A stretch of DNA of 64,000 nt, taken from Mobula hypostoma. Its lineage: Eukaryota. The position numbers were made by a program, and so were the translations under genes. Shown piece by piece: positions 609-63,374 of the stretch. The notes beneath the pieces were generated by a model. It was not told the origin of the DNA. It saw only the letters and a list, made by a program, of their open reading frames with translations, and made no database searches. The DNA is taken from positions 4,154,001 to 4,218,000 of the forward strand of contig NC_086108.1 in assembly GCF_963921235.1 (NCBI RefSeq), in the 5' to 3' direction. Position 1 is the stretch's first letter. Each line of letters opens with the position of its first letter.

Positions 609-1579
609 CACATAGACTCACTCACTCACACCCCTGTACGTCTGTCTGTCCCCTCTACCCCCCCTCTCCCCACCCCCCCATGTTGTCATCACCTGGCTGG
701 CCGCTCCATGACCCCCCGTCCCAGTGGGTGTGTGCTGTGGTCTGTGGGTCAGCAATATATGACACTTTGGTTCTGCTGGAGCCTATTGTACGGCTGCTGA
801 CGAGAGTCTCGTGTGTGCAGGAGGGTGGGGTGTGGGCAGCAGGCTCTCCCACCACACCATTGTGGACGACACATGATCAGGGTCCCCCAAAACAAAGGGT
901 CCAAAGTCATTTATATTAATTATTTCAAAGCAACCGAACAAAAAAGTTCTTACTGACCATCTGTGGTCTTGTTAGTGTAAGTTTTCAACAGAAGCCTTTC
1001 GGGACCAGCTGTGTGACTGCTTTGTGAAGCCTGTGTCCGACCAGGGGAGAATGCCGAGTACAAATGGCGATGTTAATATTGCCCAGTTGGTCCTGTTGTC
1101 CAGCAAGTCCTGACGGCAAGATTTCAGAATCGGCTTTATTATCCCTGACATACTGTATATTTTGTGTCTATTAACACGAGGTTCTGCAGATGCTAGAAAT
1201 CCAGAGAACACACAAACATAAAATGCTGGAGGAACTCAGCAGGCCAGGCAGCATCAATGGAGGGGAATAAACAGTGGAGCTTCTTGTCTTCATCGGATCC
1301 TGACTTGGCCTGAAGAGTTGGCTCTCCACAGATGCTGCCCAACCTGCTGAGTTCCTCTAGCAATTTGTGTGTGTGTGAATGTTACCCATGAAGTTTGTGG
1401 AGCTTATTTGCGACAGCAATATAGGGAAATCCATTAAAAAGTAATATAAAAGAATAGTTCAAAAAGTGAGCAAAATAGTGGATTAGTGTTCATGAACCAT
1501 TCAGAAATCTGATAGCGGCGGGGAAGGTGTTCCTGAAATGTTGAGTGTGTGTCTTCCAGCTCCTGTACCTCCTCCCGTG

Positions 1580-6144: not shown

Positions 6145-6442
6145 CTCTTTATCCTATGGTCCAATCTCCTCTCCTATCAGATTCCTTCTTCTCCAGCCCT
6201 TGACCTTTCCCAACCACCTGGCTTCACCCATCACCTTCCAGCTAGCCTCCTTCCCCTCCCAACCACCCCACCTTTTCATCCTGGCACCGTTCCCGCTTCC
6301 TTCTCAGTCCCGATGAAGTGTCTCGGTCCGAAACATAGACTCTTTACTCTTTTCCGTAGATGCTGCCTGACCTGCTGAGTTCCTCCAGCATTTTGTGTGT
6401 GTTGCTCTGGATTTCAAGCATCTGCAGAATCTCTCATGTTTA
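6145..6442 (+). mobile_element. Penelope-like pLTR/3' remnant with a degenerate hammerhead motif (6305-6341); similar remnants at ~1170-1375(-), ~7270-7365(-), ~34010-34360(+), ~52590-52985(+), ~57895-58005(-), ~61005-61170(-)
   Basis: Pyrimidine-rich tract, then AGTCC(C)GATGAAG..GAAAC, then the GATGCTGCCTGACCTGCTGAGTTCCTCCAGCA tail shared with the GIY-YIG-bearing copies. Confidence 0.75.

Positions 6443-7226: not shown

Positions 7227-7269
<43 letters not shown>
7227..7269. repeat. (CA)n microsatellite
   Basis: Pure CA run abutting a PLE tail remnant. Confidence 0.95.
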
Positions 7270-7275
<6 letters not shown>

Positions 7276-8327
7276 AGCTGCAGGAACTCAGCAAGTCAGG
7301 TAGCATCTGTAGATGGGAATAAACAGCCGATGTTTTGAGTTGAGGTCCTTCGTCAGGACTGGAGATGATTAGCTTTATCTGTGATGTGTACAATAAAACA
7401 TACAGTGAAGTGTGTCATTTGCGTCAACCAACTTCAATCAGAGGATTGCGCTGGGGGCAGCCCACAAGCATCGCAGCATATCTGGCACTAACTTACTAAC
7501 CCTAGTCCTAGCCCACGTGTCTGAACATTGATCAGCACTAAACTGAACAGTCCCAGGCTGTTTCAGTGACTCTGCGGTTTGATATTATACATTCTGCGTT
7601 TTTGCTGTTTGCATGATTTCATCTTATTTGCATGTTGGATGTTTGATGGTTTCTTTGCAGCACTCACAACGCGCTGGAGGAACTCAGACCTTGATGGTTT
7701 CTTTGAATGTGTTGGTTCCATGGTGTTTGTTTCGTGGTTGTCTGTGGGGAAGATGAATCTCAGGGTTGTATAGCACATACATACTTTGGTAATAAATGTA
7801 CCTTGAATCTTTTTTGGACTGTGGGAGGAAACCAGAGCACCTGGCGGAAACCCACATGGTCACAGGGAGAACGTACAAGCTTCTTACAGACATCAGTGGG
7901 GATTGAACCCAGGCTGCTGTGAACCATTGTGCTACTGTGCAGCTAAGGGGTAATATCCAGCAATTTAATCAGTTGACAAGGGACAGTTTCACTTTATAGT
8001 AGCCAGTTAAGCAACCGAAACAAAATCCACTTGGTCACAGGGAGAGCTTGCAAACTCCACACAGAGAGCACCCCTGGTCAGGATGGAGCCCTGCTCACTG
8101 GTGCAGTGAGACAGCGACTCTACCATTGTCTCTCTGCAGTTTGTGCAAGTTCTGTGAGATGGGGGTTAAAGTTCAAGTATACAATCCTTCTGAGATTAGT
8201 GTGATCTAAGGGTGTGATGTCAGTCCTCTTGCGGCTTTCAAGTTTTTGTATTTATTTAACGAGAGTGTGGAACAGGCCCTTCTGCACCAGCGAGCAGCCC
8301 ACCGATTTAACCCCAGCCTAAACACAC

Positions 8328-8725: not shown

Positions 8726-9175
8726 ATGACTAATTAACTAACTAACCAGTACCATAGGAAATCCACGCGGTCACGTGAAGAACGTACAAACCTTCTTACA
8801 GAGGATGCCAGAAATGAATTCCAAACTCCAGTGCCCTGGGCAGCAATAGCGTTATATTCACCACTATGCTACAGTGGTGTTGTTAGAGTTGAGATTGATT
8901 AAATAGTTGTTCTGTGGCAACTACACACACACAATGCTGGAGGAACTCGGAGGGTCAGGCAGCATCTATGGAAAGGAATAAACAGATGTTTCAGGCTGCA
9001 TCAGAACTGTTCTTTGGGTCCTTGTGGAATTATTGAACGCTCACCAGGAAGCCCACTTGGCTGGGATTATGAATCAGAACTAATGTTTCTTTTACTGGGA
9101 TCTGGGCCTTACGGAGACAGGCTGTATTAACAGTACATCGCTGGTTGAAACTCTGTGTGTGGGTGGATGTATGTA

Positions 9176-11630: not shown

Positions 11631-11762
11631 CTGACGAAGGGTTTTGGCCCGAAACGTCAACTGTACCTCTTCCTAGAGATGCTGCCTGGCCTGCTGCGTT
11701 CACCAGCCACTTTGATGTGTGTTGCTTGAATTTCCAGCATCTGCAGAATTCCTCGTGTTTGC
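11631..11762 (+). mobile_element. 132-bp solo PLE terminus beginning at the hammerhead core, with a 12-bp TSD
   Basis: GTACACAACATC at 11619-11630 and 11763-11774; insert begins CTGACGAAGGGTTTTGGCCCGAAACGTC. Confidence 0.85.
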
Positions 11763-16644: not shown

Positions 16645-17397
16645 TCACCAGTCAGGGCCCCAAACAGTCCTTCCAGGTGAGGCATCACTTCACCTGTGAG
16701 TCGACTGGGGTGATATACTGCGTCCAGTGCTCCCGATGTGGCCTTTTATATACTGGCGAGACCCGACGCAGACTGGGAGACCGCTTTGCTGAACATCTAT
16801 GCTCTGTCCGCCAGAGAAAGCAGGATCTCTCAGTGGCCACACATTTTAATTCCACATCCCATTCCCATTCTGACATGTCTATCCACGGCCTCCTCTACTG
16901 TAAAGATGAAGCCACACTCAGGTTGGAGGAACAACACCTTATATTCCGTCTGGGTAGCCTCCAACCTGATGGCATGACATCGACTTCTCTAACTTCTGCT
17001 AATGCCCCACCTCCCCCTCGTACCCCATCTGTTACTCATTTTTATGCACACATTCTTTCTCTCACTCTCCTTTTTCTCCCTCTGTCCCTCTGAATATACC
17101 TCTTGCCCATCCTCTGGGTTCCCCCGCACCCCCCTTGTCTTTCTTCCCGGACCTCCTGTCCCATGATCCTCTCGTATCCCCTTCTGCCTATCACCTGTCC
17201 AGCTCTTGGCTCCATCCCTCCCCCTCCTGTCTTCTCCTATCATTTTGCATCTCCCCCTCCCCCTCCAACTTTCAAATCCCTTACTCACTCTTCCTTCAGT
17301 TAGTCCTGACGAAGGGTCTCGGCCTGAAACGTCGACTGCACCTCTTCCTATAGACGCTGCCTGGCCTGCTGCGTTCACCAGCAACTTTGATGTGTGT
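16645..17397 (+). mobile_element. Penelope-like element 3' fragment (GIY-YIG endonuclease plus pLTR)
   Basis: ORF 16677-: FTCESTGVIYCVQCSRCGLLYTGETRRRLGDRFAEH...VATHFN...EQHLIFRLGSLQPDGM is a PLE GIY-YIG domain. Confidence 0.9.
17302..17337 (+). ncRNA. minimal type-I hammerhead ribozyme motif (PLE pLTR)
   Basis: AGTC-CTGACGA-A-GGGT/CTCG/GCCT-GAAAC-GTC-GACT: stem I AGUC/GACU, intact core boxes, palindromic ACGU stem III, predicted cut after 17333. Confidence 0.75.
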
Positions 17398-18341: not shown

Positions 18342-21300
18342 TTTCTTGTTCTGACTTTTAATGGCGGTTGGCAGTCTAACTTAAAGGTGCATTACCACTG
18401 CCAACTGGACTGGAGTGTTGTGTAGAGTTGGGAAATAAAACCCCTACTAGTTCTTTATCAACTGAAAACTAAATTACCCCAAAAAGCCCTATAGATTTTA
18501 AGTAACGAAGGACAATATTGTGAATTAAATTAAAGTCACTTCCATAACTTAAAAGTTTTTAAGTGAAAACTGTCGACCCCCAAAGATAGTAGTGCAGCCT
18601 GCGTTTGCTTTCTCTCAGCCTTGTATGCTTCACTTTGTTAAAGAATCTGTTCAACTGTTTGATAATGATGCCAGCTCCTGCGCACCCCAGAGTGATGTTT
18701 ACCAACGGGATACAAGGAATAATTAAGCATAGGATGCCCAATTCTGTCGAGTCAATATAGTTCCCTCCCTTCTTGTCTTACCCCCTTCTCCCGTCAATCC
18801 AGCAGTTTGATGTGTTCTGTAAAGGTGTCTCACCTTATGCCCATTATCTCACAGCTCTTGCCGTAATCCCCTAACTCGTAGCCCCACCAACCCCTTAGCT
18901 TCAGATTTGCTAAGTGGAAGGTCTATTTCCACAGATGAACTTTCAACAGCCTTTTTGGCCAAACAAGCAACCTGCTCATTCCCCTCAACATCTCTGTGTG
19001 CAGGATCCTGTAAGATCCTGTAAGAAGGAAATGCTTAGACCAATATTTTGAATATGAAATAAGGATTGAAGAGCTTCCAGCAGTAAATCTGACCTACTGC
19101 TATAATGACCTGTTTTAAGACTAGTCAAAACAGAAAAAAATCTGAACAAATTATAACTTTGCAAGGACCGATTTCCTCTACCCACTGTCAGCCCAAAATG
19201 GCAGCAACCAGCTCTACAGTATTCACTGATGAGTAGTTAGTAAGACATTTCTTTATCGTTACCTGTAATTCAGGCACAAAAACAGTCACACCAACATTTT
19301 CCGTTAAACTATCTCTTTATCCATCAGTGAAAATGGGTAACATATCACAATAATTCTCCTTAACACGATCCTTGGATTTCATTAAATCATGCAATTTAAA
19401 ATCACCTAAAGCCATTGGAAAAAAACCACAATGGGGTTACCAAAAAAGCTACAAAACGGGACAAATTACATAATCCAACAACCCCATATTCCTAGTGTGA
19501 TGAGAACCCAGCCACCCAGAACTAAAAACACTCTTCTTGTGATGTTCCCAACAGTCTGGCAACACACTTTTAACAGGGTGATCATTCCTCTGCCCCCCTC
19601 AAGTTAACCCAGTATGTTGACAACAACTTCATCCTCTGCAACTGTAAGGGTAATTGTCCCATTTCAACTAGTAAAGCTGAAACAGGAGATGACCTTACAG
19701 CACCACAACACAGTCTCAAAGTCTGAGCTTGTATCACATACAAACATTTTAAATTTGAAGATGAAGTTGATCCAGAAACCACACAGCCTTAATCAAGTAA
19801 GAATCTAATTAAACAAATATAGAAAGTTAATAGAGATTTTCGTGTAGCACCCCAAGAATTACCCACATAGACACCCAAGGATATTCAAAACCCTTTTACA
19901 TTTGTCAATTATCTTACTGATACGGTGCTCCCATTGTCAGCTTTTTATCCAGCCACGTGCCAAGAAATCTTACCACTGACACTCCTCCAAGAGTTTGACT
20001 ATTTAATTTCAAATTGAGCGCAGGCTTATAGATCCTCTTTGTAAAACATATAGCTTGTGTTTTAGCTACCGAAAGCTTAAAACCCCATTTATTTGCCAAC
20101 TGTTTGACCTTATTAATTGCTAATTGCATCCTGTATACAGTTAAATTGATATTTTTCCCTCTGATCCATAAAGCTCCATCACCTGCAGAAAGTGATTTAC
20201 CCACCCCAGTACCTATCTTGGAGAAAATACCATTCATATATTATCAAACAATAAAGGGCTGCAAACATTGTCCTGTAGAGTCCCATTCTCTGTCTCATAG
20301 AAGCCCGAATATACCTTGCCTACAGAGATTGTCCAAATAAGAAACTCACAAATTATGTAGCCTTCCTCTCACTCCTAATTTCCATAATTTAGTCAAAAGA
20401 CCCTCCCGCCATAATATATCATATGCTTTTTCTGTATCAAAAAATACTATTACAACTTCTTCATTTACCTGCACTTTCCTAATATCATCTTCCAAACATA
20501 AAACTGAATCCAATATCATTCTACCCTTCCAAAATCCACTCTGATAAAACACTGTTTCACCTCTCATTTTCCAAAATATAATTCAACCGCTCTATTACCA
20601 TACATTCCATAAGTTCACACAAATGGGACGTTAGTGATATTAATGGGCCTTTTCCAGGTTTTACAATGGGTACTACTCTGCTGCCATTTTCCATAAGGAG
20701 GAAAGATGGCCCAAATTCCAAATATGTTTCAGGAATTTTAATATTATCTTAAGAGAGCTGTCAGCCATGTGTTTAAACATGCAATAACATATATCATCCT
20801 TTCCTGGAGCCGTCTGACCTGTACTATTAATAGCTTTCATAAATTCACACAAAGAAAACTCTGCATCACTAATACTATCACTGCTACACCTGGCTCCCAA
20901 CACATCAGGGTGTTCACTTAGAACCCTTCAGCTTCTGCACTTAAATGAATTGCAGCAAATGACGAGGTCAGTAACTTAACCTTCTCTGTTTCAGTAACAA
21001 TAGTATTACCTTCTTTAATCAACACTGGAATGTTATTAGCCCTGTGAATCACACCCCACCCCATTTTTTAAAATCATTTCCCAAACATCTCCAAGTTTAA
21101 TACCCCTTCCAATACAATCACCGTATGACCTCCAGTAAACCTTTTTTTACAAACTTCGCTACTTTCCTCACTTGCCTGTACTCTTTTAACTTAATAAGTT
21201 CACTCGGAAGTCATACCTATTAACTCTCCTAAATGTCTTATTTCTCTCCCTATTGCCTCTGCACACTCCTCAGTCCAGCATGGTACAGCCTTTATCCTAC

Positions 21301-23375
21301 TAATTCTCTTTTTAATAGGAATCACTTCCACCACAGTTTGATGAATAACATGACACAACCTTTCATTGCAGAAATCCGCATCATCCTCAACATTCAGCCC
21401 AGATGTTCATCACAAAGAACCTTAACCTCTCCCAATTTGCTTTACCAAAATTCCACGTCCTGAAAGTGGCCTCCTGTCCCCGACATAAATGCAAACCCAA
21501 GCTTATAAGTATAGGAAAATAATCACTTCCCAGTGTTTCAGCTCCCATGACATCCCACTCCCTCACTCCAGCCAGAATGTTCGAAACTAAAGTTAAATCT
21601 ATATAGCAGTTTCAGAACTATTATGAACGTTAAACCTCGTAACCCCCTCCATCATAAGACACATAAGATGTGAAATATTTAAAAATTCTTCTACAATCAA
21701 ACCATTATCATCATTCTGTGAACAACCCCACAATGAACTCTGTGCATTAAAATCCCCACGCAACACTTAGTGAGCTAGAGCTAAATATACTTTCCAGCAA
21801 ATCAATCGAAAGCTTTTCACAGGGGTTATATAAAAGAAATTACCACTTTAATACCCCTATCTGTTGAATCAACTACTTCTACTGCCAGTGCCTCCTATAT
21901 TTCATTTACATCCATAACTCTATGTCCTATCCCTTTCCTTATAAAACTTACAACACCACCCCCTCTACCAACTAATCTATCACACCTAATTACAATATAA
22001 TCCTGCAAAGAAAAACTTAAGTGTGGTAAAAACCACATTTCCTGAATACGTATAATATCAGATGGATTTGATAAATCAGAAACAAACTTCTTAAAGTCTT
22101 GGCCATTGGAAATCAGGCTTCTCGCATTCCACTGCAATATTCTTATGCACATTCTGTACCTTCAGAAGAAGACTGAAATACAGATACCCCACCCTTCAGA
22201 GTTTCATTTGCAGCTTCCCACGTTACACCAGATATACCCAGATGCTTTTCAGTAACCTTCACAGTAATTTTAATTTTAATTTACATCTAGATGCCTGAGA
22301 GCAGTACAATTCACCGCATCAGTTATGGATATCACAAACATCATTTTTTCAAATAGTAACTGTATCTTTAGTAAGAGGAGTGTGATGCCAACATATACCT
22401 TCTGACACCACAGTCTGTTCTCTGACTGGTAATACTTTATCAGTGTTTGGTTTAACTTTTTGCACAGCCTCTGCATAAGACACACCCAACTGTACTTTAA
22501 CCTTTGAACTTCAGCTACTTTTTAAGCCCTCTATAAGCTGCACTATGTTCTCCTCCACAGTTACAACATTTAAACTTGATGCCTACACAATCTTCATATT
22601 TATGTTCCCAACCACACTGACTACATCTTAGTTTCCCCCGACATAGTGCCACAACGTGCCCGAACCTCTGACATTTGTAACATTTAAGTGGGGATGGAAT
22701 ATAAGCTCGAACGTTATAACTAACACACCCCAAACTAACGTGATCAGGGAGCTTCACTTCATCAGAACATAACAAGATAGATAAACTGTCCATCCCTTCC
22801 CCGTTTCTGACAACTTACAATCCCTTTACCTCCTTAACCTTGCCTCCCAGTAAATGAGATCTCCACCATAACAGCCGTTATAACACTCCTAATACCTCTA
22901 TTATCATTAGGCAAAATAGGTACTATCTTTTTGCCAAGTAAGGTCTTTGATCATAATGACTCCTCAAACTGCTTTTTAATCCTTACACACAATTAACACC
23001 TTCCCTCCTTTTAAAGTACGAGCACAATCTATATTCCCTATAGCCCCTTTAGCTCTATAGTTAATTTAATGGGATCGATGGAGGGCGGCTAGTCTGGGAC
23101 AAATTTAAACAATACCTTGAAGTCTTCTTTCCTTTTTTTTCAAAATATCCATCCCTTCCTCTCCATCACTGGAAATCATTCCAATATTATGTTTCTTTTT
23201 CCGTTTTCCAGATCTGGATTCAACTTCCTTCCAGCCTCCTCTCGACAACCGGCCCACACCCGAACCCTCCATTTCCCGTTGCTTTTCCAGATCTCCCCCC
23301 CCCCACCACCTGACCCTACACTGTTTCCCAACATCCCCACACCATTCACAGCCAGCACCGCCAACCGCCTCATCT
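18342..23375 (-). mobile_element. near-full-length decayed I-group (Nimb-like) LINE: gag-like ORF1, ORF2 APE-RT-RNase H
   Basis: Three zinc knuckles (CYKCQRFGH..CSQCGWEH..CCNCGGEH, 22515-22793), RILQWNARSL (21895-22152), TAPGKDDI, VFFDTEKAYD, AQTLRLCCGA, IFTDG near 19320-19335. TSD CAGCAGCTGGACCTT (18327-18341) / CAGTAGTTGGACCTT (23376-23390). Confidence 0.85.
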
Positions 23376-32439: not shown

Positions 32440-33026
32440 TGAGATCGGTTCGCTGAACACCTACGCTCTGTCCGCCAGAGAAAGCAGGATCTCCCAGTGG
32501 CCACACATTTTAATTCCACGTCCCATTCCCATTCTGACATGTCTATCCACGGCCTCCTCTACTGTAAAGATGAAGCCACACTCAGGTTGGAGGAACAACA
32601 CCTTATATTCCGTCTGGGTAGCCTCCAACCTGATGGCATGAACATTGACTTCTCAAACTTCTGGTAATACCCCACCTCCCCCCACCCATCTCCTTCACCC
32701 ACCTGATCTCCTTTCCTGCCCATCGCCTCCCTCTGGTGGTCCTCCCCTCTTTCCTTTCTTCCATGGTTTTCTGTCCTCTCCTGTCAGACTCCCCCTTCTC
32801 CAGCCCTGCATCTCTTTCACCAATCTACTTCCCAGCACTCTATTTCAGCCCTCTCCTTCTGGTTTTACCTATCGCCTGGTAGTTCTCTCTCCCTCCCCCA
32901 CCTTTTCACTCTACTCCTCATCTTTTTTCCTCCAGTCCTGACGAAGGGTCTCTGCCAAAACATCGACTGTACCCCTCTCCATCGATGCTGCCTGGCCTGC
33001 TGAGTTCCTCCAGCAGTTTGTGTGTT
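32440..33026 (+). mobile_element. Penelope-like 3' fragment with a mutated hammerhead (32934-32968)
   Basis: 32445-32660 is near-identical to 16780-16995 (GIY-YIG C-half); the GAAAC box is mutated to AAAAC. Confidence 0.88.
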
Positions 33027-34684
33027 ATTATATATATACGTACATATTAATATTGTCATTTAGTTTTTCTATATTTACCACGTATTGCCTTGTACTGCTG
33101 CCACAAAGTTAACAAGTCACGACTTACTAAACCTGATTCTGACATACTGTCACTTTGATGGTAGCCTGATGGATGTCGGTGACAGTAAACCTGGGTCTGA
33201 TGCTGTTATTGTTACCCGTTGTTCTGTGATCTGCCGTCAGCTGACTTGTGTACAGAGAGTCCGTGCCAAAAGCAGCGATGTATTGATAAATTGGGGTGCT
33301 GGGGTGGGAACTGCGTGTAAAGTTGGGGGGTCAGTCATCACAAGGGATCGTGTCAGCGGGTGGAGATGTGGGGGAGATTTTCATGTTTGTGTGTGTGGGA
33401 AGGGAATAGCAGGGTTAAATTAGTGATTCATAGGACAAGCTCCTCTTAAAAACCAAATGCACAAAGATGTGTAAAAGGGCCTGGGTGTTTAGTCTATTAA
33501 TATCTCTGAATAGTAACTCGCAAGATAATGAATGGAGCTCTTTGGTTGGGAAACTCTGGGCACACATCTTTCAGCTGCAGACATAGGTTGTGAGTCAGAT
33601 AGATAATGAGGCTCCTTCCTCAGCAGTTGCTCAGCAGAGCGCTAATCCTGACAAGCCCTCAGATTCTCTGAAGTGTTTTGAACCTCTTGAGGAGCCCTGA
33701 TCCCTTCTCTGAAAGGGAGAGGGCCACTTCACGCCTGCGAAATGGATAACATAATGCTAACACAGAGTCAGCTGCCCGAGTTCAGTTCTCAGTAGCATTC
33801 TCCCTGTGACCGCGTAGCTTTGCACCCATATTCCAAAGACAGTTTGTTTTTTTGTGCGGCGGGGGCGGGGGGCAGAGTCGGTGGGTTTTTTGAACAACAC
33901 CGTGGCTTTCTTTGTGTCGTGGCTATCTGGTAAAGATGAATCTCAGAGTTGTATACTGCATAAGTACTTTAATAAATGAACCTTTGAGTGTTTGAAGACA
34001 TCCGGGATAGTCTCCAACCTGATGGCTTGAATATTGATTTCTTCTTCTGGTAAAAAAAAATTCGCTCCCCTCTCCTCTTCTTTTCCCCACTCTGGCCTCT
34101 TACCTCTTCTGACCTCTCTATCACCTGCCAATTGGTTCCCCCTCTCCTATGTCCACTCACCTCTTCTATCAGATTCCTTCCTCTCTAGCCCTTGACCTTT
34201 CCCACCTGCCTGGCTTCACCCATCACCTTCCAGCTGTCCTCTCTCTCCTCCCCCCACCCCTTTCCGGTCCTGATTAAAGGTCTTGGCCCAAAATGTCAAC
34301 TGTTTATTCATTTCCATAGGTGCTGCCTGGCCTGCCGAGTTCCTCTGACACTTTGTGTGTGTGTGTGTTGATTATGGGTTAATCAGTTAACTAGTCAGAA
34401 GGGTGTAATTGGGTGACGCAGGCTCGTCAGGCCAGGAGGGCTGATTACCATAACGTACCTCTAAATAACTGGGGTGTAACCAGTTCCCGGCTGGTCTTCT
34501 GGACGGAGCTTGTTCACTGGGAAGGATTGAAAAAGATCTGCATGTCCATAAGAGCCAAGGTTGAGGCTTTGTTTCTGCTGAGTTTGCTCGCTGGAGAGAG
34601 GTGACACACACAAAACTCATCAGAGAGGCAGCATCTATGGAGAGGAATAACCAATCAACGTTTCGGCCTGAGATCCTTCAAAGG

Positions 34685-38949: not shown

Positions 38950-40390
38950 GATCCAGTTGCACAAGGAGGCATTGAGGCTTATTGATCGGTTTTGAGGAGA
39001 TGATGGTATTTAATGCTGAGCTGTGGTTGATAAAGGCCATTCAGGTGTATGCACTCTCACTGTCCAGATGTTCCAGGGTTGAGTGAAGCGCCAATGCAGT
39101 CATCATCATAGCTTGTCACACCAGACAGCCAGCCACTCTAGTGTTGTTTGGTGATGTTGAGCAGGTCAGTCTCAGCTAAATCAGGTGAGAGTGGGCAGTT
39201 GCGCAGAACGTGTTCGATGTTTTGCACCCTTTCGCCACACTCACAGGATTCGCTGGTCTTTAAACCCCACTTCACCATATTATCTCCTGTCCTACAAACT
39301 CCCGCTCTCGCTCTGTTGAGAGTACACCACTTCCGTCTGTCAAGCAGTGCCTCATCTGGCAACATTTCTGTGGGGTCTTGCACTGTATTGTCTGGTGGGG
39401 TTCCGGCTTCTGTTTGTTGCCAGAGGTCAATCTTGTATGTTTGGGGGGGATGTTCCGTGCGGTAGTTCCTCCACTGTAGCAAAGCTTTTCCTCGATTTTA
39501 GGCGGTTGGAAACTGACACATAATGATGTAGTGGGTGCCGTGGATCCCAGTTCTGTTTACCTTTTTCAATTTTTGTTGTAGTGTGTTTTCGGATCTCTGA
39601 GGGACCAATGCCTGCAAGTCTGTAACTGATGTTAGTGGGTGTGGGGCGCAGTGTGCCCGTGATTATTCGGCAGGCTTCGTTAAGAAACGGGTCTATTTTC
39701 TTCGCATGGGCTGATCTGCCCCACACGGGTGTACAGTATTCTGCAGGTGCATAGCAGAGTGCTAGAGTGCCAATGAAGTCGCATCTGCTGTTGCCCTGTT
39801 GCAAGTTGGAGTGGATCTACTGTAAGTCACTTCTCAGGCAGAAGCTGATATGTTTCAGCATCAACTCCACAAAACACTTCATCACTGTGGATGTAAGCCA
39901 GGGGTTCCCAACCCTTTTTCTTGCCATGGATGTCTACCATTAACCGAGGGGTTGGTGGATCCCAGGTGGAGAACCCTGATAGACGCTACTGGACAATAGT
40001 CATTGAGGTGGGTTACCGAGCTCTTCCTAAGCAGTGGTTTCACTGAAGGTTAAAGGCCTCAGTGAACACTCCAGTCAGTCAGTCAGCGCAGGTCTTTAGT
40101 TCTCAGGCAGGTATTCCATCTGGGCCAGATGCTTTCCGTGCATTCACCCTCCTGAAGGCTGCTCACACATTGGCCTCAGAGACTGAAATCACAGGATCAC
40201 TGACGGCTGTGGGAGTTTGTGATGGTTCCTCCATGTTCTGGTGGTCAAAGCAAGAGTAGGAGGCATTGAGCTCATCTGGAAGTGAAGTCCTGCTGTCGCC
40301 TCTGTCACTTGATGAATCTTTACAAGAGCTGATGGTATTCAAGCTCTTCCCTGCTTCATTGATTCAAGTTTAGTCCCGAATTGCCACTTC
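38950..40390 (-). mobile_element. decayed Rex1/Babar-like RT fragment (host of the Vingi-like insertion and a micro-MITE)
   Basis: AFINHSSALNTIISSK (38858-39040); reverse-strand KASGPDGIP at ~40105-40135. Confidence 0.7.
39102..39766 (-). mobile_element. 5'-truncated Vingi/Ingi-like LINE
   Basis: LALCYAPAEYCTPVWGRSAHAKKID..CRIITGTLRPTP..LAGIGPSEIR and the C-terminal CECG..IEHVLRNCP knuckle; (ATG)n tail; TSD GCCAATGCAGTC (39090-39101) / GCCAATGAAGTC (39769-39780). Confidence 0.75.
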
Positions 40391-45021: not shown

Positions 45022-46244
45022 GCATAACAAACATCACACCCAATGGGATTGAGGATAATAAATCAGACATGATCGATGTTGGTCAGGGCTCGACATGCAA
45101 CAAGAAACCAACGACATTCAACAATTATCACAATTATGCAAGGCAGGATCCACTGTTTGGACAATTTAAACACGGGCTCAGATAGACTGGAGAGGCAGGG
45201 TGGCGGGACCGGAGGTGAGAGTCGGGCCGATTTTGCTCGCTCTCCCGCGATGTTCACTCCTCTCTCCGTGGCACTGAGACCGTGAGACTGCTCCAGCTGC
45301 CGTGCTTGTTCTCTGCCAGCTTTGCAGCGATTTGCCCCACTAATATGATGAACTGAGACCGAGGCTTCGGCCTACTACGGGCTACTCTGGGAATTCTGAT
45401 CTGAGGATTCAATTTGGTTCAGAATGCTGTTAGTTGCTTCTATTGTTTGCATGATTTGTGGTTTTTTTTCTCTTTCTCTGCGTGTTGGGTGCTGGTCTTC
45501 ATTTTTTAAAATTGGGTTCTTTCAAGTTGCTTGCTTTGTGGCTGACTGTAAGCAGATAAATCTCAAGGTTGTATAATTTATACATACCTTGGTAATAAAT
45601 CTACTTTGAATAAAAAATTATATGTAGTGAAATACGTCATTTAAGACCGTAAGACGTAGGAGCAGAATTAGTCCATTTGGCCCATCAAATCTGCTCTGCT
45701 ATTTCATCATGGCTGTTCCATTTTCCCTCTCAACCCCATTGTCCTGCCTTCTTCCCGTTACATTTCACTGTGACTAATCACGAACCTGTCAGCCTCCACT
45801 TTAGATGTGCACAATGACCTGGCCTCCACAGCCGCCAACGTAGCACGCTCGCGACTCACTAACCCTAACCCGTACAGCTTTGGACTGTGGGAAGAAACCC
45901 AAACCCATACAGTCCCGGGGAGGGAGAATGTATAAACTCCTCACAGACAGTGGTGGGAATTGAACTCCAGCCAGTGATTGCTGGCACTTGCTAACCCAGA
46001 TCTTTCAGGTGAGACCACCCAGAACACTATTAACTGTTCTGGGTGACATATCTCTGATAGTAAGATATCCTCTCTGTTGCTCTCTCTCCCCAAAACTGCA
46101 TTTACCAGAATATTACCCAGACTCTTGAGGGTTAATTCGTGAGGAGAGAGCACACAAGCCAGGCATGTATTCCCTGGAAGTGTAGAAATGTATTTCCTGG
46201 AATTTAGAACAGATGGTTAGAGTAAAATCTTTTGGAGGGACTGT

Positions 46245-47985
46245 TTGTCTCTCTCTCTCCCTCTCTCCGTTTGTCTCTGTGTCTCTAGCTCTCTCTCTGT
46301 CTGCTCTGTCTGTCTGTCTCTGTCTCCCCCCCATCTCTCCCTTCTCTCTCTCTCCCCGTCTCTCCCCTCTCTCTCTGTCCCCCCCCTCTCTCTGTCCCCC
46401 CTCTCTCTCTGTCCCCCCCTCTCTCTGTCCCCCCTCTCTGTCTCCCCCCTCTCTCTGTCCCCCTCTCTCTCTGTCACCCCCTCTCTGTCCCCCCTCTCTC
46501 TGTCCCCTCTGTGTCCCCCTCTCTCTCTGTCCACCCTCTCTCTGTCTCCCCCCTCTCTCTGTCACCCCCTCTCTGTCCCCCCTCTCTCTGTCCCCTCTGT
46601 GACCCCCCTCTCTCTCTGTCCCCCCTCTCTCTCTGTCCCCCCTCTCTGTCCCCTCTCTCTGTCCCCTTCTCTCTGTTCGCCTCTCTGTTCCCCCTCTCTC
46701 TGTTCCCCCTCTCTCTGTCCCCCCTCTCTCAGTCCACCCTCTCTCTCTGTCCCCTCTCTCTCTGTCTCCCCTCTCTCTCTGTCTCCCCTCTCTCTCTGTC
46801 TCCCCTCTCTCTCTGTCCCCTCTCTCTCTGTCTCCCCTCTCTCTCTGTCCCCCCTCTCTCTGTCCCCCCACTCTCTCTGTCCCCCCTCTCTCTCTGTCCC
46901 CCCTCTCTCTCTGTCCCCCTCTGTCTCCTCTCTCTCTGTCCCCCTCTCTCTGTCCCCCCCTCTTTCTGTCCCCCTCTCTCTCTGTCCCCCCTCTCTCTCT
47001 GTCCCCCCTCTCTCTGTCCCCCCTCTCTCTGTCCCCCTCTCTCTGTCCTCTCTCTCTCTCTCTGTCCTCTCTCTCTCTGTCCTCTCTCTCTCTGTCCCCT
47101 TCTCTCTCTGTCCCCCCTCTCTCTGTCCCCTCTCTCTCTGTCCCCCCCTCTCTCTGTCCCCTCTGTGTCCCCCCCTCTCTCTGCCTCCCCCTCTCTCTGC
47201 CTCCCCCCTCTCTCTGTCTCCCCTCTCTCTGTCCCCCTCTCTCTCTGTCCCCTCTGTGTCCCCCCCCTCTGTCCACCCTCTCTCTGTCCCCCCTCTCTGT
47301 GCCCCTCTCTCTGTTCCCCCTCTCTCTGTTCCCCCTCTCTCAGTCCACCCTCTCTCAGTCCACCCTCTCTCTCTGTCCCCTCTCTCTCTGTCTCCCCTCT
47401 CTCTCTGTCTCCCCTCTCTCTATGTCCCCCCTCTCTCTGTCCTCTCTCTCTCTGTCCCCTTCTCTCTCTGTCCCCCCCTCTCTGTCCCCCTCTCTCTCTG
47501 TTCTCTCTCTCTGTCCCCCTCTCTCTCTGTCCCCCCTCTTTGTCCCCCTCTCTCTCCCCCCTCTCTCTCTGTCCCCCCTCTCTCTCTCCGCTCTCTCTCT
47601 CTCTGTCCCCCCTCTCTCTCTGTCCTCCTCTCTCTCTGTCCCCTCTCTCTCTGTCCCCCCTCTCTCTCTGTCCCCCCCTCTCTCTGTCCTCCCTCTCTCT
47701 CTGTCCCCCCTCTCTCTCCGCCCCCTCCTCTCTGTCCCCTCTCTCTCTCTGTCCCTTCTCTCTCTGTCCCCTCCTCTCTCTGTCTCCCTCTCTCTCTGTC
47801 CCCCCTCCCCTTCTCTCTCTCCCTCTGTCCCCCCTCTCTCTGTTCCCCCTCCCCCTCTCTCCCCTCCCCCTCTCTCTCTCCCCCTCTGTCCCCACTCTCT
47901 CCCTCCCCTCCCCCCCCTCTCTCCCTCCCCTCTCTCCCCCTCCCCCCCTCTCCCTTCCCCCTCCCTTTATCTATCTCTCTGTCTT
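46245..47985. repeat. 1.7-kb polypyrimidine low-complexity tract, (CT)nGTCCCC-type units
   Basis: Almost no A on the plus strand; variable CTCTCTCTGTCCCC units. Confidence 0.97.
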
Positions 47986-49097
47986 TTTCATGCTAGAGAT
48001 TAGGATGCATATCTTTTTTAAAAGTGGACCTTATTCCTGGAAGTTATGAATCAGAGTTGGTGATTTGGCGGATCTGTGTCATTTGCTGATGATACAGTCA
48101 TTGAGACTGATGACTGTTGTTTGTTTACCAGTGGTATGGGTGACATGATGGGGATGTCAGCTCTGATCTACAGAATATGTTCCAGGCGAAGAATGCCTCC
48201 TGCATTTAGTTTGTCTCTGTGCCCACCCTTTCATTCAAGCCCCTCGTGGCGGACAAGGCCACATTTCAAAGTCTGTGTGGGCAAAGGGGCTCTCCTGGTT
48301 TGCAGTGAGGCTTTGTGTGAGCTCGGCGGAGTGGGTGAGAGGAGGGGATGGTCGAGGATGTTCCACCCATCCACTGTTTAACTTTGTCAGGGGAGGGAAG
48401 ATGCGGAATGCCGCAAGTCTCCCAGACAGGAAGCGGGCTGTCAGCTGCGTCTGTGTGTGTGTGCGCGCCTGGGTCGGTGTGATATATGATCGTCCACAAA
48501 CATTCATTGTCAGAGGGAACTGTTTGCAGATGCAGAGTTCCTGGAATTCCCAGATCATTTTTATTGGTGCCGCTGAATTTGTGAAGTCTTTCACGTTGGG
48601 AGCTCGGTACGAGCAGGCCGTTCGTTCTACCACAGAAGCTATCGCAAACCTTATCCGTAAGATGTAGGAATCTCACGTCATTGTATATATTTAAAACTGA
48701 GGTTGGTAGGTTCCAAAGTTCAAAGTACATTTATTATCAAAGTGTATAACCTTGAGATTCATCTCTTTACAGGCAGCCAGGAAACAAGAAATCTAAAAGA
48801 CCCCATAAAAAAGGACCAACAAACACGCAATGTGTAGAGAAATTATAAGAGACATATTATGCAAACAGTAACCTTAAGCTCACAGTGTTTCTGAACTAAG
48901 TCCACAAAAGAGCATCCAAGACCCATAGTTCAGTGCAGAGCCCAGTAAACGTTGTGGAGCAGTCTGCTGAACCGGCTCGGCCCTCCCCTCAGGCCCCAGC
49001 GCTCTCACCTTTTTAACTTGACTGGGTGCCTGAATTATCGTCCAAACTCCAGGTTCAGTCACCTCGGAGCGATCTGGTGCCTGGACCCCACTGCCTC

Positions 49098-51430: not shown

Positions 51431-53221
51431 CAGTTTGCACAAAAAATTAAACTGATCTTTTTCACATGTAGGAATTCTGATAGCCAACTCCCTTGGTTAC
51501 ATATACCAGATGTCAAACATCTGGTCCTGACCAACATTCTTGTTTTTCATAGATTTTGGCCTGGTTTATCAGCCTGTCTTGTAATGCATTGGTGGACTGA
51601 GCATTTCCTGATGTTCCTAGGCTGAAATTCCTGGATGCATGGATACGGTCTTTTGTCAGCTCCTCCCAGACCACCAACCGTCCGGAGATCAGCCCAGCTG
51701 CTCGCCCGAATCAGAATTTCTCAACATGGATGCCGTGTCTGTCCTGGGGCACACCGGCTCGTTGTGACTTGGATGAGGGTGTGGTGGAAGGGTGGGTTAA
51801 TCTGTTAGCAGAAGACGTTAGGGTTGGTGGAGTTGAGGATACTGTAGACGGCTGTCACAAGATGGCACCAGTAGGGGCGAATGTTTTTGTACAGTTCCAA
51901 TGGGAATTATCAAATATTCCTCTTCAGTGCTACTGCAGCTGACTTCTGGTGCAGCTACAGAACCGTAACCCGCAGTTACGGACTTCTGGTGCAGCTACAG
52001 ACATAGCAGCCTCCCGGGAGCCACCCAAAGGTGTTCTTTATAATCACAGGACGACGCTGGACGCTAAGAACTTCACATACTACTCTATCAGCAAGCTGTT
52101 CGTTGGCAGAGAGGCTGGTGCAGACAGTGTTACTGCCTGCTAGGGAAGGCATCGGACTTCGTGCGCGAGGGCGGTGGGCGGTCTAACAGCGAGTGATTGT
52201 CTTGGGTGTTTCTCTTTCGATCACAAGACCCTGTTGGACATTGATAATAAGTCCATTTCCGTGTTTACTGGGGGAGCTGTGTGACCTCAATCATAACAAG
52301 GACCAGGCTTCGAGCCGCGGGCTTGCCTGTCGCAGCAGTCCAGGAGTAAAGGCACTGGAGGCGGTATAGCACAGTTGGGACTTGCTCCTCCCAACAGTGC
52401 TGCCCTCCAGTGTTCAATTGGAGGAATGACCAACTGGATTGCACACATACCTATATTCATCTGCAGACTGGTGAGAACCGCTTGTTCTTGCCAACAACAC
52501 CCATGCACCATCAATTTACAGGACATGTCACTCACAGACATATATAGTTTTCAGTGTGACAGTGTTTTACTGGTATCTTATATGTGGTATGTGTCCCTTG
52601 TTCCACTGTCACCCCTCCTCTTCTCCCTCTGGTGTCCCTTTCCTTCCCTTTCTCCCATGATCCACTCTCCTCTCCTGTCCTATCAGATTTCCTCTTCCTT
52701 AGCCCTTTACTGCTTCCACCTATCACCTCCCAGCTTCTTACTTCATCCCCACTCCCCTACCCTCCCCCTCACCTGGTCTGACCTATCACCCGACAGCTTG
52801 TGCTCCTCCCCCTCCCTCCACTTCCGTATTCTGGTGTCTGCCCCCCTCCTCTCCAGTCCCGAAATATCCACTGTTTATTCATTTCCACAGAGGCTGCCTG
52901 ACCTGCTGAGTTCTTCCAGTATTTTGTGTGTGTCTGTCTGTGTGTGTGTTACTCAAGATTTTCAGCATCTGCAGAATCTCTTGAGACTGTTTACTAGTCG
53001 ATGTCCCATCAAGTTCAAGTTTAATACCCGTGTCTACAGCTAAACGAAACTGTGTTCTGCCGGGGGTCAAGGTGCAAACACAGTACAGACAGTCACACAC
53101 ACCATATATACTAACGATAGCACATCCAGTCACAGATAATAATATTAGCGCAAGCCCGTAATATTATAGTGTCAGCCTCCCCCACCACCCGACCCAGGAG
53201 GTGAAAGGCTGAACCGCCGAC

Positions 53222-57762: not shown

Positions 57763-58284
57763 GCCAGCACCTTGAACTTGTATCCTCTCACCTCAGTGAA
57801 CTGTAGAAGGCACCGTTAGACTTTGCTATCCCTGGACTATCACAATGCTTCCAAGCCTAGGGACATTCTAAGTGGGGATCTGCTCTAAGTGGTAGAGAAA
57901 ACCTGCAGATGCTGAAAATCCAAGCAACACACACAAAGAGTGCTGGAGGAACTCAGCAGGCCAGGTAACATCTAGGAAAAGAGTTAACAGTCAACATTTC
58001 AGGCCAAGTGTGTTGTCCGCTCTATCTCGTGGTTTTCTGTGCTGCAGGAAGGTCACGTTCCAAGTGAGTTTCACCTGCCTCCATTCGGAGGATTGTGCAT
58101 GTCACCAGGACCTAACCGTACAATTTTGGTCTGCATGGAGGCTGTAGAGGAGGTTCACGAGAATGAAAGGATTAATATATGAGAAGTGTTCGATGATTCT
58201 AGGCCTGTATTAACTAGAATTTAGGAGAATGGTGGGGGGGCTAGAATCTCATTAAAACCTATCAAATATTGAAAGGCCTAGATT

Positions 58285-59295: not shown

Positions 59296-62200
59296 ATGGA
59301 AGCTGCTGTACAGCGCACAGGTACTGTGCAAGCTAGGTTTACAGACAAATAAAATTTTAAAGCAGAATCACTTTTCTCATGTTAGGCTATGTTAGACATG
59401 ATTTTTACACTATGGCGGGGGGCGGTTCTGGAAAGTATATTGTGCCTAAGAGGGGCATTGGCAAGTATGAAGGTGCTTTGGGGAGTGGATGTGGAGAGGA
59501 TGTTTACTGTAGTTTTGGAGATACAGCGTGGAATTGGGCATTCCAGCTCCTGGGGCTACGTCACCCAGCAACCCCCAAATTAACCCTAAACAATTTACAA
59601 TTACCGGTGAATCGACTAACTGTGGGAGGAAACTGGAGCACCTGGAGGAAACCCACACAGTCCGCGGAGAGAACGTATAGACTGCTTACGGACGATGTCA
59701 GATCTGAACTCCGACCTGTTCTAGCAGCATGCTAGCTGCTCCCCTACCATGGTGCCCACATGGCGGAGGAGTCTAGCAACGGAGGATGCAGCCTCAGACC
59801 ACAAAGATGCAGATGCTTCTTCCAACAGAGATGTTTTGTAACTTTGAAACATTAAACTAATTCAGAGGAAGACATGGGAGTCTGACATGTGTGACTTCAC
59901 TCATGTCACATGGCAGCATCATGACATAGGCAATTCACGTATTTTTGCATGCAACTTGTAGTGAGTTATTTAAACAAACAACAATGCTTAATCAACAACA
60001 TATTTGCAAGATAACACAAATACTACTGATGTATGGTACTAAGCTTGTTATAGCCGGGGGTGGTAACGAGAATAAGCTCCCACTACCTATTAAATGCTCC
60101 CAATGGCGTGAGATCCAAACAGCCTCTGTCAGCCAAGTCCAGCTCCTGGCCTACACATGAAGCTTAGCTAGTGGAACCACTTCTACTGACAGGAGGAGGG
60201 GTAAAGGTGGGTTACTGGTGCCTTAAAACCAGTCGCTTCGGGCAGATGGGGCTCATCAGCTGTTATTGGCAGCTCATCTAGGAGAAGGAAAACTCTGATC
60301 TCAGACCTCCGCTACCTTGCGACTATACCCACTCATGAGGGAAGGATTTGGGAGTAAACCCCCGGGGGGAAAATCCAGAGCTGGGGTCCCTACCCTGTGT
60401 TAAGTTCAACACTGCTGGTACCATACTGTATCGGTCTCTGTCGTTCCTTTGGGTTCACCAGATGTGTTGAGAGGGGGAGCCTGTCACACGGGCAACAGCT
60501 CGCTCTCCGTATCGTACTGCTCTGGCTTGTGTATCTGGACAACTGGGATGCAATATCCATGGTCGACCCTGACCTACGGAGGCCTCAGTTAAATACGCAG
60601 CAAGGAGGAATTTCTTTAGCCAGAGGCTGGTGAACCTGTGAATTGTTTGTTGTGGAGGTCGAGTCATTGAGTATGTTTAAAACCAAGGTTGATAGGAAAT
60701 TGTGTTTGAGAGGTAAAATAAATCAGCCATGATGGAACGGCAGAGCAGACTCGATGGGCCAAATGGCCTAAATCGGGGTTCCCAGGTTGGGGTCCACAGA
60801 CCCCTCAGTTAATGGTAGGGGTCCATGGCATAGACCCTGCAGTAATTCTATTCCTATGTTTTATGGTCAGTCCGCCCCAGAGTGTGGGCGTCTACCAACT
60901 CTGATCAGGGCTTGGCTGTATAGAGGCCCAGACATCTCTGCAGGAGCACCCAGCAGTGGTTCTGGACCCCTTCTCTCCCTTGCGCAAAGAACATGGTTGT
61001 TGCGGAACACAGGAGATTCTGCAGATGCTGGAAGCCCAGAGTGACACACGCAGCACGCTGGAGGAACTCAGCAGGTCAGGCAGCACCTACGGAGGGGAAT
61101 AAACAGTCAACGTTTCGGGCCGAGACCCTTCACCAGGACCGGAGAGGAAAGGGGGTAGGCGCCAGAATAAGAATAACCTGCGAAATCAAGACTGACTGGG
61201 GTGAGTTAACGCGCCCCAGGGAACCGTGTTCTACGTCCCCTTTGGACACTGCCCTCCGTTCTCGTTTCATCCTTCCAACAGCTTAGCGGCTCGCCTCTGG
61301 ATCCAGTGCGACCTCGCTGATGGCATCCGGCTCATGAACATAAGGGGGTAGTTTCACTCACCATCATTGAAATGTTCCCCCAAGCTATGGACTCACTTTT
61401 CAGGACTCTTCGTCTCATGTTCCTGATATTTATTGCTTTTTTTTGTATTTGCATAGTTTATTGTCTCTTGCACACTGATTGTCTTGTTGGGTGCAATCTT
61501 TCAGTGATTCTGTATGGTGTTTCCTGGAGTTACTGAGTCTGCCTGCAAGAAAAAGAATCTCATGGTTGTATATAACGACCTATACAGTACGTACTTTGAT
61601 GATCAGTTTACTTCAAATATGAACGTTGAACTTGATGTTATGCAGCAACCAATTAACTGTAAAGCTTTAGAGAGGGTGTGGAGGAGGTTTATCGGGAAAC
61701 TGCCTGGATGACAGAGCATACTTTATGAGTATAGGTTGAGTGAGCTCAGTCTTTTCTCTTTGGAGCGGAGGAGAATGAGCTGATTCTCTCCCTTCCCCCC
61801 CCCATTCTCCCCCCCTCCCCTCTCTTCCTCCTCCCTTCAACCTCTTTGTTTTCTGAAGAAACTCATCTGGGAGTCATATGCAATGAAAATCACAATTATT
61901 TCCCTTGAATCAGTACTCCTCCTGTGTTTGACACATCCATCCTCCTCAAGTTTATTTTCAGGACTAGATTAACTGTCTGAAGTGAAGCTGGTTTGAATGG
62001 AGTTTCAGCCCCCCCAGCGGTGGGAATGGATTAATGCTGAGATCTTCCTTCGTGGTAGGCACATTCCAGGTCAGGGAATTTCTGGACTGCTCCAGGGTAG
62101 AGACATTCTGGAGTGAACTTCCTTTGGTGAATCCATGTAGTGCCATTATTGAAGCAAAGTGGCCCTGTTTCCCTGGACTACTGCCATCCAACCACAGGCA

Positions 62201-62386
62201 GATGTAATGCTGGAGAGGGTTCGGGGGGGGGGGCGGGTGCAGTACTGAGCTGCAGAGCAGTGACTCATTTACTGGCCTGACTGTTAGCAATCCCGAGCCA
62301 TGAGTTCAAATCCCACCAAGGCCCCTAAATTTTTAAACTTAATGCTCTAAGTAACTTTACTACCAAAGTATATTTATGTTACCCAA

Positions 62387-63156
62387 ACACGAGGAATTCT
62401 GCAGATGCTGGAAATTCAAGCAACACACATCAAAGTTGCTGGTGGAACACAGCAGGCCAGGCAGCATCTCTAGGAAGAGGTACAGTCGACGTTTCCGGTG
62501 CTCCTGATGTGGCCTTCTATATATTGGCGAGACCCGACGCAGACTGGGAGATCGTTTTGCTGAACAGCTATGCTCTGTCTGCCAGAGAAAGCAGGATCTC
62601 CCAGTGGCCACACATTTTAATTCCACATCCCATTCCCATTCTGACATGTCTATCCATGGCCTCCTCTACTGTAAAGATGAAGCCACACTCAGGTTGGAGG
62701 AACAACACCTTATATTCCAACTGGGTAGCCTCCAACCTGATGGCATGAACATTGACTTCTCAAACTTCCGCTAATGTCCCACCTCCCCCTTGTACCCCAT
62801 CCGTTATTTATTTATTTACTCATTCTTATTTCTCTCTCTCCTTTTTCTCCCTCTGTCCCTCTCACTATACCCCTTGCCCATCCTCTGAGTTCCCCCCCAC
62901 TTTTCCTTCTTCCCGGTCCTCCTGTTCCATGATCCTCTCATATCCCTTTTGCCAATCAACTGTCCAGCTCTTGGCTCCATCCCCCCCCCCCCTGTCTTCT
63001 CCCATCATTTTGGATCTCCCCCTCCCCCCTCCCACTTTCAAATCTCTTACTCACTCTTGCTTCAGTTAGTCCTGACGAAGGGTCTTGGCCCGAAACGTCG
63101 ACTGTACCTCTTCCTAGAGACGCTGCCTGGCCTGCTGCGTTCACCAGCAACTTTGG
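62387..63156 (+). mobile_element. Penelope-like insertion with an inverted 5' pLTR piece and a 14-bp TSD
   Basis: 62387-62495 is the reverse complement of the PLE tail; the GIY-YIG segment is 62496-62775; TTTATGTTACCCAA at 62373-62386 and 63157-63170. Confidence 0.9.
63068..63103 (+). ncRNA. minimal type-I hammerhead ribozyme motif (best copy)
   Basis: AGTC-CTGACGA-A-GGGT/CTTG/GCCC-GAAAC-GTC-GACT; predicted cut after 63099. Confidence 0.8.
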
Positions 63157-63374
63157 TTTATGTTACCCAATACCATTTTGAGATGTGTTTTCTAGCAGGC
63201 ATTCACAGTAGAACAAAGAATTCCAATACAATCAGTGAAAAACTACACACACTGACAAAAGCAATGTGCAAAAGAAGACAATCTGTGCAAATACAAAAAT
63301 AAGTTAAAAAAAATACTGAAAACATAAGTCTTTTCATCAAAGGTGGATTAAATTAAGGTTAGTTTGCCAAATCG

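Follow-up and report, generated by a model that had tools for sequence, protein, structure and literature searches.

A minimal hammerhead motif of a Penelope-like element in a ray genome, probably a passenger of truncated insertions and predicted to be inert where it lies

Introduction

A short stretch on the plus strand of the 64-kb DNA analysed here (hereafter the window) has the letters of a minimal type-I hammerhead, and it raises the question of whether such a motif cuts the RNA in which it is transcribed or simply travels with the retrotransposon that carries it. An earlier note on this DNA had recognized a dispersed family of these motifs in the termini of Penelope-like elements (PLEs) and had proposed that intact copies could cut a host pre-mRNA, possibly by the pairing of two copies in one transcript. 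In this study, we compared the motif and its relatives with published hammerheads, mapped the ends of the insertions that contain them, and predicted how their transcripts fold. We consider it probable (roughly 0.8) that the motif is the hammerhead of a Neptune/Nematis-type PLE of rays, carried as a passenger by truncated copies primed on uncleaved RNA, and that the dispersed copies are, by prediction, inert.

Results

Hammerhead motifs in the window

A relaxed descriptor of the minimal type-I hammerhead (stems I and II of at least 3 pairs each, both strands), which the earlier note had proposed as a check, was applied to the 64-kb window and matched at two places, 63068-63103 and 17302-17337. 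In 300 dinucleotide shuffles, the mean number of matches was 0.05 and no shuffle reached 2; a match having both stems of at least 4 pairs and a palindromic helix III was found in 0/300. A chance origin of the motif was rejected from these shuffles and from a reversed-window control (see below). Helices I and II can form with 5 and 4 pairs, respectively, at both 63068 and 17302, and both copies have the ACGU palindrome (15.2-16.2), which would permit a helix III in a dimer; helix III cannot close inside a single copy. The core letters are unchanged in the 63068, 17302, and 11631 copies. The pair G10.1-C11.1, called highly conserved in PMC4209133, corresponds to 63080-63091 in the 63068 copy and is G-C in six of the eight aligned copies. 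Since the 17302 copy has G-U at this pair, only the 63068 copy has every feature.

These results refine the earlier reading. Its eight named stretches were all found in place to within 1-2 bases, and the 17302 copy has the cut site after 17333 and the G-U pair at the base of stem II that had been reported for it. The description "two apparently intact" holds for the 63068 copy but not for the 17302 copy, in which G-U replaces G10.1-C11.1 and a misfold is predicted. Likewise, the 11631 copy deserves its label of core-intact, with all 12 letters kept, but it lacks stem I, because its insertion begins only at C3 and carries an A in place of G1.1.

The Rfam search returned no hammerhead family among 7 matches at E up to 10, as expected for a hammerhead form without helix III. 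A canonical Rfam hammerhead was rejected because no model matched and helix III is unable to close in one copy. The motif fits the PLE consensus published in 2014 (U-rich flank, CUGANGAH, G..C stem II, and GAAAN-palindrome-NUH; PMC4209133). It shares with the minimal hammerheads described there by Cervera and De la Pena the type-I order, the full core, the extra base between A9 and G10.1, the G10.1-C11.1 pair (at 63068), the palindromic 15.2-16.2, the absence of a loop III, a helix I of 4-5 bp, a pyrimidine-rich 5' flank, and the location in a pseudo-LTR; mostly solitary copies of truncated elements with opposite-strand partners close by are common to both as well. Helix III often reads 'C G U C' in the alignment of that paper. 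By contrast, helix II has 4 bp here and 7-8 bp in the Schistosoma motifs of the same paper, and the density in the window, 15 ends in 64 kb, is high compared with the copies described there. The descriptor, the published consensus, and a GIY-YIG remnant upstream on the same strand agree on the identity given in the earlier note, a minimal dimer-type hammerhead in PLE termini. Judged by its sequence, the 63068 motif is a real copy of the PLE self-cleaving RNA motif, ordinary in kind.

Table 1. Features of the 62387-63156 insertion and of the other family copies in the window ("new" marks copies absent from the earlier note; + and - are strands; numbers with + in the last column are distances from the cut).
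Feature	Position	Strand	Details
Left target-site duplication	62373..62386	.	11-14 bp; final 3 bases could be the element's
Inverted arm of the 63068 insertion	62387..62495	-	hammerhead 3' half from G12, cut site, ~101 bases beyond
5'-truncated PLE frame end (GIY-YIG endonuclease)	62494..62774	+	tblastn; stop codon 62772-62774
Pyrimidine-rich non-coding pseudo-LTR part	62775..63067	+	AG dinucleotides just before and within stem I strand
Minimal type-I hammerhead motif, all features present	63068..63103	+	predicted cut after 63099
Stem I of 63068 motif	63068-63071/63100-63103	+	extra U-G pair 63067/63104
Catalytic CUGACGA box of 63068 motif	63072-63078	+	
Single extra A after A9, 63068 motif	63079	+	counterpart in 17302 copy, 17313
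Stem II of 63068 motif	63080-63083/63088-63091	+	4 pairs
GAAA of 63068 motif	63092-63095	+	
Palindromic ACGU replacing stem III, 63068 motif	63095-63098	+	
C17 of 63068 motif	63099	+	
Post-cut sequence to short 3' end	63104..63156	+	+57
Right target-site duplication	63157..63170	.	
Second young insertion	16647..17397	+	GIY-YIG remnant 16647-16979, pseudo-LTR, short 3' end (+64)
Second descriptor-complete motif	17302..17337	+	G10.1-U11.1 instead of G-C; predicted cut after 17333
132-base insertion from C3	11631..11762	+	long end (+104); core intact, no stem I
Older copy	6305..6440	+	long end; U4 changed
Older copy	7260..7361	-	short end; G12 to A, stem II damaged
Copy with GIY-YIG fragment 32443-32661	32441..33028	+	short end; motif 32934-32968; G12 to A
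Older copy	34265..34366	+	short end; G8 and G12 changed
Older copy	61006..61141	-	long end; A6 changed
Decayed inverted pair, new	1176..1377	.	1176-1284 minus, long end; 1303-1377 plus, short end
Decayed copy, new	8920..9008	-	short end
Decayed copy, new	34591..34680	-	
Decayed copy, new	52857..52985	+	core deleted; long end
Decayed copy, new	57897..58008	-	5' half missing; long end

The parent element

GIY-YIG remnants were detected by tblastn in the sense orientation upstream of the motif at 16647-16979, 62496-62771, and 32443-32661, and Pfam placed a GIY-YIG domain at 16638-17093 (E 1.1e-4, above the Pfam cut-off). The 63068 hammerhead lies in sense about 290 bases past the stop codon of the GIY-YIG frame. 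The closest named protein relative is from Mobula hypostoma (P0001, 93%), and five Hypanus sabinus proteins match at 70-83% over the query. P0001-P0006 have RT motifs and a CX3-4CxxC zinc-finger linker upstream of the endonuclease. Twenty-one longer relatives (31-55% identity) were also compared; all of them carry DKG, 20 have DKG and YxDD together with the linker, 20 have the linker and the endonuclease, and 19 have YxDD at the RT position plus the linker. The PLE-type RT lies outside the window copies, which are 5'-truncated, and is present in P0001 and the longer relatives; as the window copies begin downstream of the linker, the linker is assigned to them by homology to these relatives. 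The search for a close full-length protein relative found none, the best being partial at 55% and the others at 47% or less, and the 64-kb window contains only 3' fragments and no full-length PLE copy.

According to Craig et al. (10.1101/2021.04.23.441226), the zinc-finger linker is found in Neptune and Nematis and is lacking in Penelope/Poseidon. The parent is thus, as placed by its linker, probably a Neptune/Nematis-type PLE of a myliobatiform ray. It has in common with the Neptune/Nematis elements of that work a C-terminal GIY-YIG domain with an internal CxxC, the zinc-finger linker, an inverted truncated copy at the 5' end, and a tail at one end, with only 3' fragments available here. The stretch 16640-17400 is covered in all of its 30 bins by contigs of four runs, each from a different organism (contig depth is not copy number), which indicates that the PLE family is common to more than this genome. 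No site at which many molecules start or stop was listed for these contigs, a kind of data that would not reveal such sites in any case. The exact 33-base motif pattern gave 0 matches in viral contigs and 0 in metagenome contigs.

The isoforms P0004, P0015, and P0005 of Hypanus sabinus (DIPK1C X2, ABHD14A X1, and mucin-2 X2, respectively) consist partly or mostly of the frame of this PLE, and two of the three exit the frame at possible donor sites near the endonuclease end. Such isoforms could reflect genuine chimeric transcripts, or they could be artefacts of annotation.

Family copies and the ends of their insertions

From copies that span the motif, we built a profile that covers it and the sequence downstream to +103, and with this profile we detected 15 family ends in the 64-kb window at E below 1e-12; 8 weaker matches (E 0.011-1.8) were set aside, and the reversed window gave 0 matches. 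The density of roughly one motif per 8 kb given in the earlier note is therefore too low for family ends, which occur about once per 4 kb, and too high for the descriptor-complete motif, which occurs only once per 32 kb. Most copies are just 75-140 bases long and comprise the motif plus a tail. The 16647-17397 insertion is 90.7% identical over 678 columns to the 63068 insertion, and no target-site duplication was found around it. The 11631 insertion has a 12-bp duplication (11619-11630 and 11763-11774) and interrupts a LINE fragment. The copies near 52855, 9000, and 1300 seem to lack the middle of the motif, an internal deletion of the kind that might occur across a rod-like hairpin.

All 15 family ends run across the cut site, and none starts or stops at the cut, although copies beginning at the cut could be under-detected by this profile. 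The 5' ends range from -32 to -7 in profile positions. At the 3' side, 7 ends lie at +64 to +69, 7 at +95 to +102, and 1 at +80, so that 14 of the 15 stop at either of two places, near +60 or +100; the model bounds the long class at +103 except where a duplication marks the end. Judged by such duplications, which do not depend on the profile, the long end lies at +104 in the 11631 copy and at about +101 in the 63068 arm.

Two classes of ends have a counterpart in the Poseidon element of Anolis carolinensis (PAc; Frangieh et al. 2024, PMC11167929), in which the tail is defined by two internal start sites of reverse transcription, extension takes place on both target strands, and the hammerhead cleaves only once protein is added. 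The ray family resembles PAc in that its 3' ends fall into two classes, separated by about 40 bases and both downstream of the motif, that its insertions keep the uncut site, and that there are signs of extension on both target strands. The two differ in that PAc is a Poseidon whose ORF begins inside stem II, whereas the ray family has the CX2-5CxxC linker of Neptune/Nematis; an ORF start inside the motif was sought by tblastn with six relatives, and no N-terminal match to the tail was found. By analogy with PAc, an element of another clade, the ends near +60 and +100 would correspond to two internal priming sites on uncleaved RNA. On this view, a position 60-100 bases upstream of the start points of reverse transcription would make the motif a passenger of nearly every 5'-truncated insertion and would account for its presence in many places.

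Anatomy of the 62387-63156 insertion

Duplications of 14 bp, at 62373 and 63157, flank the 62387-63156 insertion. On its left side there is an inverted arm corresponding to the long end with its tail, and the arm meets the body through a 2-base overlap at 62494-62495. As the arm duplicates sequence of the right end, two rounds of copying from one region would have been needed. By analogy with PAc, the insertion may record priming on both target strands, with the arm derived from the long start and the body from the short one. Inverted truncated copies at the 5' end and a one-sided tail of 30-40 bp are known features of PLEs (Craig et al., 10.1101/2021.04.23.441226). The decayed pair at 1176-1377 has the same layout, with a long-ended inverted arm and a short-ended right side; no target-site duplication was seen there. 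A strand-changing joint inside stem II was present in one contig of run X1.

Folding and predicted cleavage

In folding calculations that ignore the tertiary core, Mg2+, and proteins, and whose numbers therefore show only that the active fold is unfavoured, each of the two monomers folded to a rod in which the catalytic box is paired with the cut site (-12.9 and -11.0 kcal/mol), and the open hammerhead shape had P below 0.001. A strand-swapped double hammerhead of the two copies reached -14.1 kcal/mol, versus -23.9 kcal/mol for two monomers and -33.1 kcal/mol for an inactive duplex; helix III contributed only -1.7 kcal/mol. In the plus-strand RNA of the full 63068 insertion, 63092-63103 paired with the arm (P 0.82-1.00) and stem I had P 0.00, with a predicted arm duplex of -133 kcal/mol. 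When the arm was omitted, stem I returned (P 0.44-0.69), always alongside the rod, which implies that a transcript starting within the insertion would escape the arm block. The 63068 copy is thus probably blocked by a reversed piece of its own insertion, and hence inert, according to these models. For the 17302 copy in its context, neither stem formed (P about 0.00), because the upstream stretch 17287-17299 and the downstream stretch 17353-17366 capture the motif. These predictions are consistent with the account in PMC4209133, in which a minimal PLE hammerhead was uncleaved as a monomer and dimers cleaved weakly.

Decay of older copies

Changes from the majority letter were counted in five older full-motif copies, with two subfamilies pooled and low power, and were more frequent at CpG (17/50) than elsewhere (25/279, p 1.4e-5). 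No sparing of the core was detectable in this sample, either outside CpG (2/45 in the core versus 23/234 in the neighbours, p 0.39) or within CpG (6/15 versus 11/35, p 0.75). G12, which is the general base of the hammerhead (PMC2553840), is changed to A in three of the five older copies. Compensatory changes were seen in 0/9 pairs over 8 decayed copies, a set of few and closely similar sequences. A family consensus without conserved core nucleotides had been named in the earlier note as evidence against its reading; the family majority keeps 12/12 core letters. This result indicates that the active lineage has kept the motif and that decay sets in once a copy has inserted. Among the 40 of 255 variants that were listed, none lies in 17302-17337, and the list does not include this copy's own change at 17325; it is no gauge of core conservation.

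Surroundings of the copies

We searched for host exons by running Pfam on 450 of the 515 non-repeat stop-to-stop frames of at least 41 aa and found none; 7 frames had transposon-type domains, and there was one sub-threshold AP2 match. Since Pfam misses many single exons, this result does not make the window intergenic. The stretch 48167-48730 is non-repeat and CpG-rich and has three long overlapping frames, two of which are in register on opposite strands; its coding-like part at about 48470-48730 had no match in Pfam above the cut-off, PDB sequences, the protein collection, or the Atlas. An extremely pyrimidine-rich simple repeat of about 1.9 kb occupies 46100-48000 on the plus strand (GC skew -0.71 and AT skew -0.77 in 46001-48000). 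Transposon remnants, from a Tc1-type transposase and several LINE RT/endonuclease frames, lie at 15792-16644, 11466-11672, 20349-20582, 21602-21766, and 39141-39497, all on the minus strand.

Discussion

Cleavage of host RNA and other roles for the motif

The most far-reaching role for these copies would be that the two intact ones, sitting in a single host pre-mRNA, pair with each other or with further copies, cut the transcript, and regulate the gene. Both motifs are on the plus strand, with a helix III of 4 bases that can pair with itself; PMC4209133 and PMC6765202 report that small PLE hammerheads can cleave as dimers, and a preprint on retrozymes (10.64898/2026.07.22.740005) describes strong cleavage for one of the nine Xenopus dimers tested and a depletion of retrozymes in introns. 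However, no host exon emerged from the 450 frames searched, the cut site of the 63068 copy is predicted to be locked by the arm, and the 17302 copy is predicted to misfold, so that the proposed cutting of a host pre-mRNA finds no support here. Pairing within one transcript fares no better, as the copies are 45,766 bases apart, their helix III is feeble in the folding predictions, and the published minimal PLE hammerheads are inactive as monomers and weak as dimers, or protein-dependent. The older copies without core sparing also speak against such a role, as does the anole element, for which PMC11167929 describes no RNA-seq reads that start or end at the cut. We regard host-RNA cleavage by these copies as extremely unlikely.

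The other two explanations concern how the copies arose. In one, proposed in PMC4209133, the hammerheads of the parent process a tandem transcript into unit-length RNA, and the re-joined circle, with its site restored, serves as the template. Such a circle would also yield the site-spanning insertions seen in 15/15 cases, and it accords with the 12 core letters of the family majority, that is, with a motif maintained in the active lineage. Against it, no window copy begins or ends at the cut, and in the anole Poseidon the ribozyme mutants insert normally in vitro, with unprocessed RNA as the main template (PMC11167929); a circular template is therefore unlikely in our view. In the other, the short copies form a non-autonomous element of their own, a retrozyme or SINE-like unit propagated by way of a small RNA that it encodes itself. 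This would suit the 75-140 bases of most copies, the clean 132-base insertion at 11631, and the derivation of animal retrozymes from PLE pseudo-LTRs described in 10.64898/2026.07.22.740005, but the 5' ends are variable and three copies run into the GIY-YIG frame, as truncation predicts, and there are no head-to-tail tandem units, the nearest same-strand neighbours being about 1.3 kb apart. We consider a unit of this kind very improbable. The ray copies share with non-LTR retrozymes (10.64898/2026.07.22.740005 and PMC7229834) a type-I hammerhead of PLE origin, a short helix III, and the need for two copies; retrozymes form tandem arrays, whereas the ray copies are dispersed truncation products. 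A retrozyme array was rejected because the window has no consecutive tandem units and its two complete motifs are 45.8 kb apart.

We therefore favour truncated copies primed on uncleaved RNA that carry the motif as a passenger. The motif of the parent element would then cut only as a strand-swapped dimer or when a protein of the element refolds it. As judged by folding, the dispersed copies would not cut, the monomer being a rod and the 63068 copy being blocked by its own arm. They would subsequently decay, most quickly at CpG; three CpG sites fall on the core positions G8, G12, and C17.

A possible intron in the pseudo-LTR

A pyrimidine tract, a branch-point-like word, and an AG at the stem I strand are present at 62775-63069 and 17280-17303 on the plus strand. 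We also considered that the pseudo-LTR of the ray PLE holds a spliceosomal intron, running from a GT at the stop codon to the AG in stem I, that switches the ribozyme; this idea is distinctly unlikely. The pyrimidine-rich 3' end of the intron would pair with the catalytic box and block it, and splicing would free the box and keep three stem I pairs. Pairing of 17287-17299 with 17306-17317 is predicted with P 0.64-0.91. Upstream of stem I, seven of eight copies have a pyrimidine fraction of 0.74-0.93, and AG stands directly before the last two stem I bases in six of the eight. The commonest letter at 17286 completes, in runs X1 and X5, what we take to be a perfect branch-point word; the base after it, the would-be branch A, is replaced in more than 80% of the contig depth in X9 and X22. 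At the stop codon, an overlapping GT is found in 2/4 copies (32655-32670 and 34035-34055) and is absent from both intact copies, and no GT..AG joint appears among the 15 listed of 437 joints. The Hypanus isoform P0004 leaves the PLE frame at the position of the stop codon, and an intron of the Drosophila virilis Penelope ends at helix I (PMC4209133). If the intron were real, host transcripts spliced into the many dispersed acceptors could thereby gain sites for protein-assisted cutting.

Meaning of the family

Our literature search found no report on PLE hammerheads in rays. The text of the supplement to PMC4209133 gave 0 matches for 'shark' or 'Callorhinchus', and neither a shark nor a ray was found in it; the 2026 preprint (10.64898/2026.07.22.740005) sampled one chondrichthyan genome, in which retrozymes were found, and its supplements may contain PLE families relevant to the novelty of this one. 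Hammerheads of this class have been on record since 2014, so that the ray family extends the range of host lineages and brings no new mechanism. Cleavage of host RNA by the dispersed copies would, if true, be a large new regulatory layer, and the evidence points away from it. What this young and abundant family supplies is a set of natural insertion ends that bear on the role of PLE hammerheads, namely on whether cut RNA serves as the template and on whether priming on both target strands gives rise to the inverted arms.
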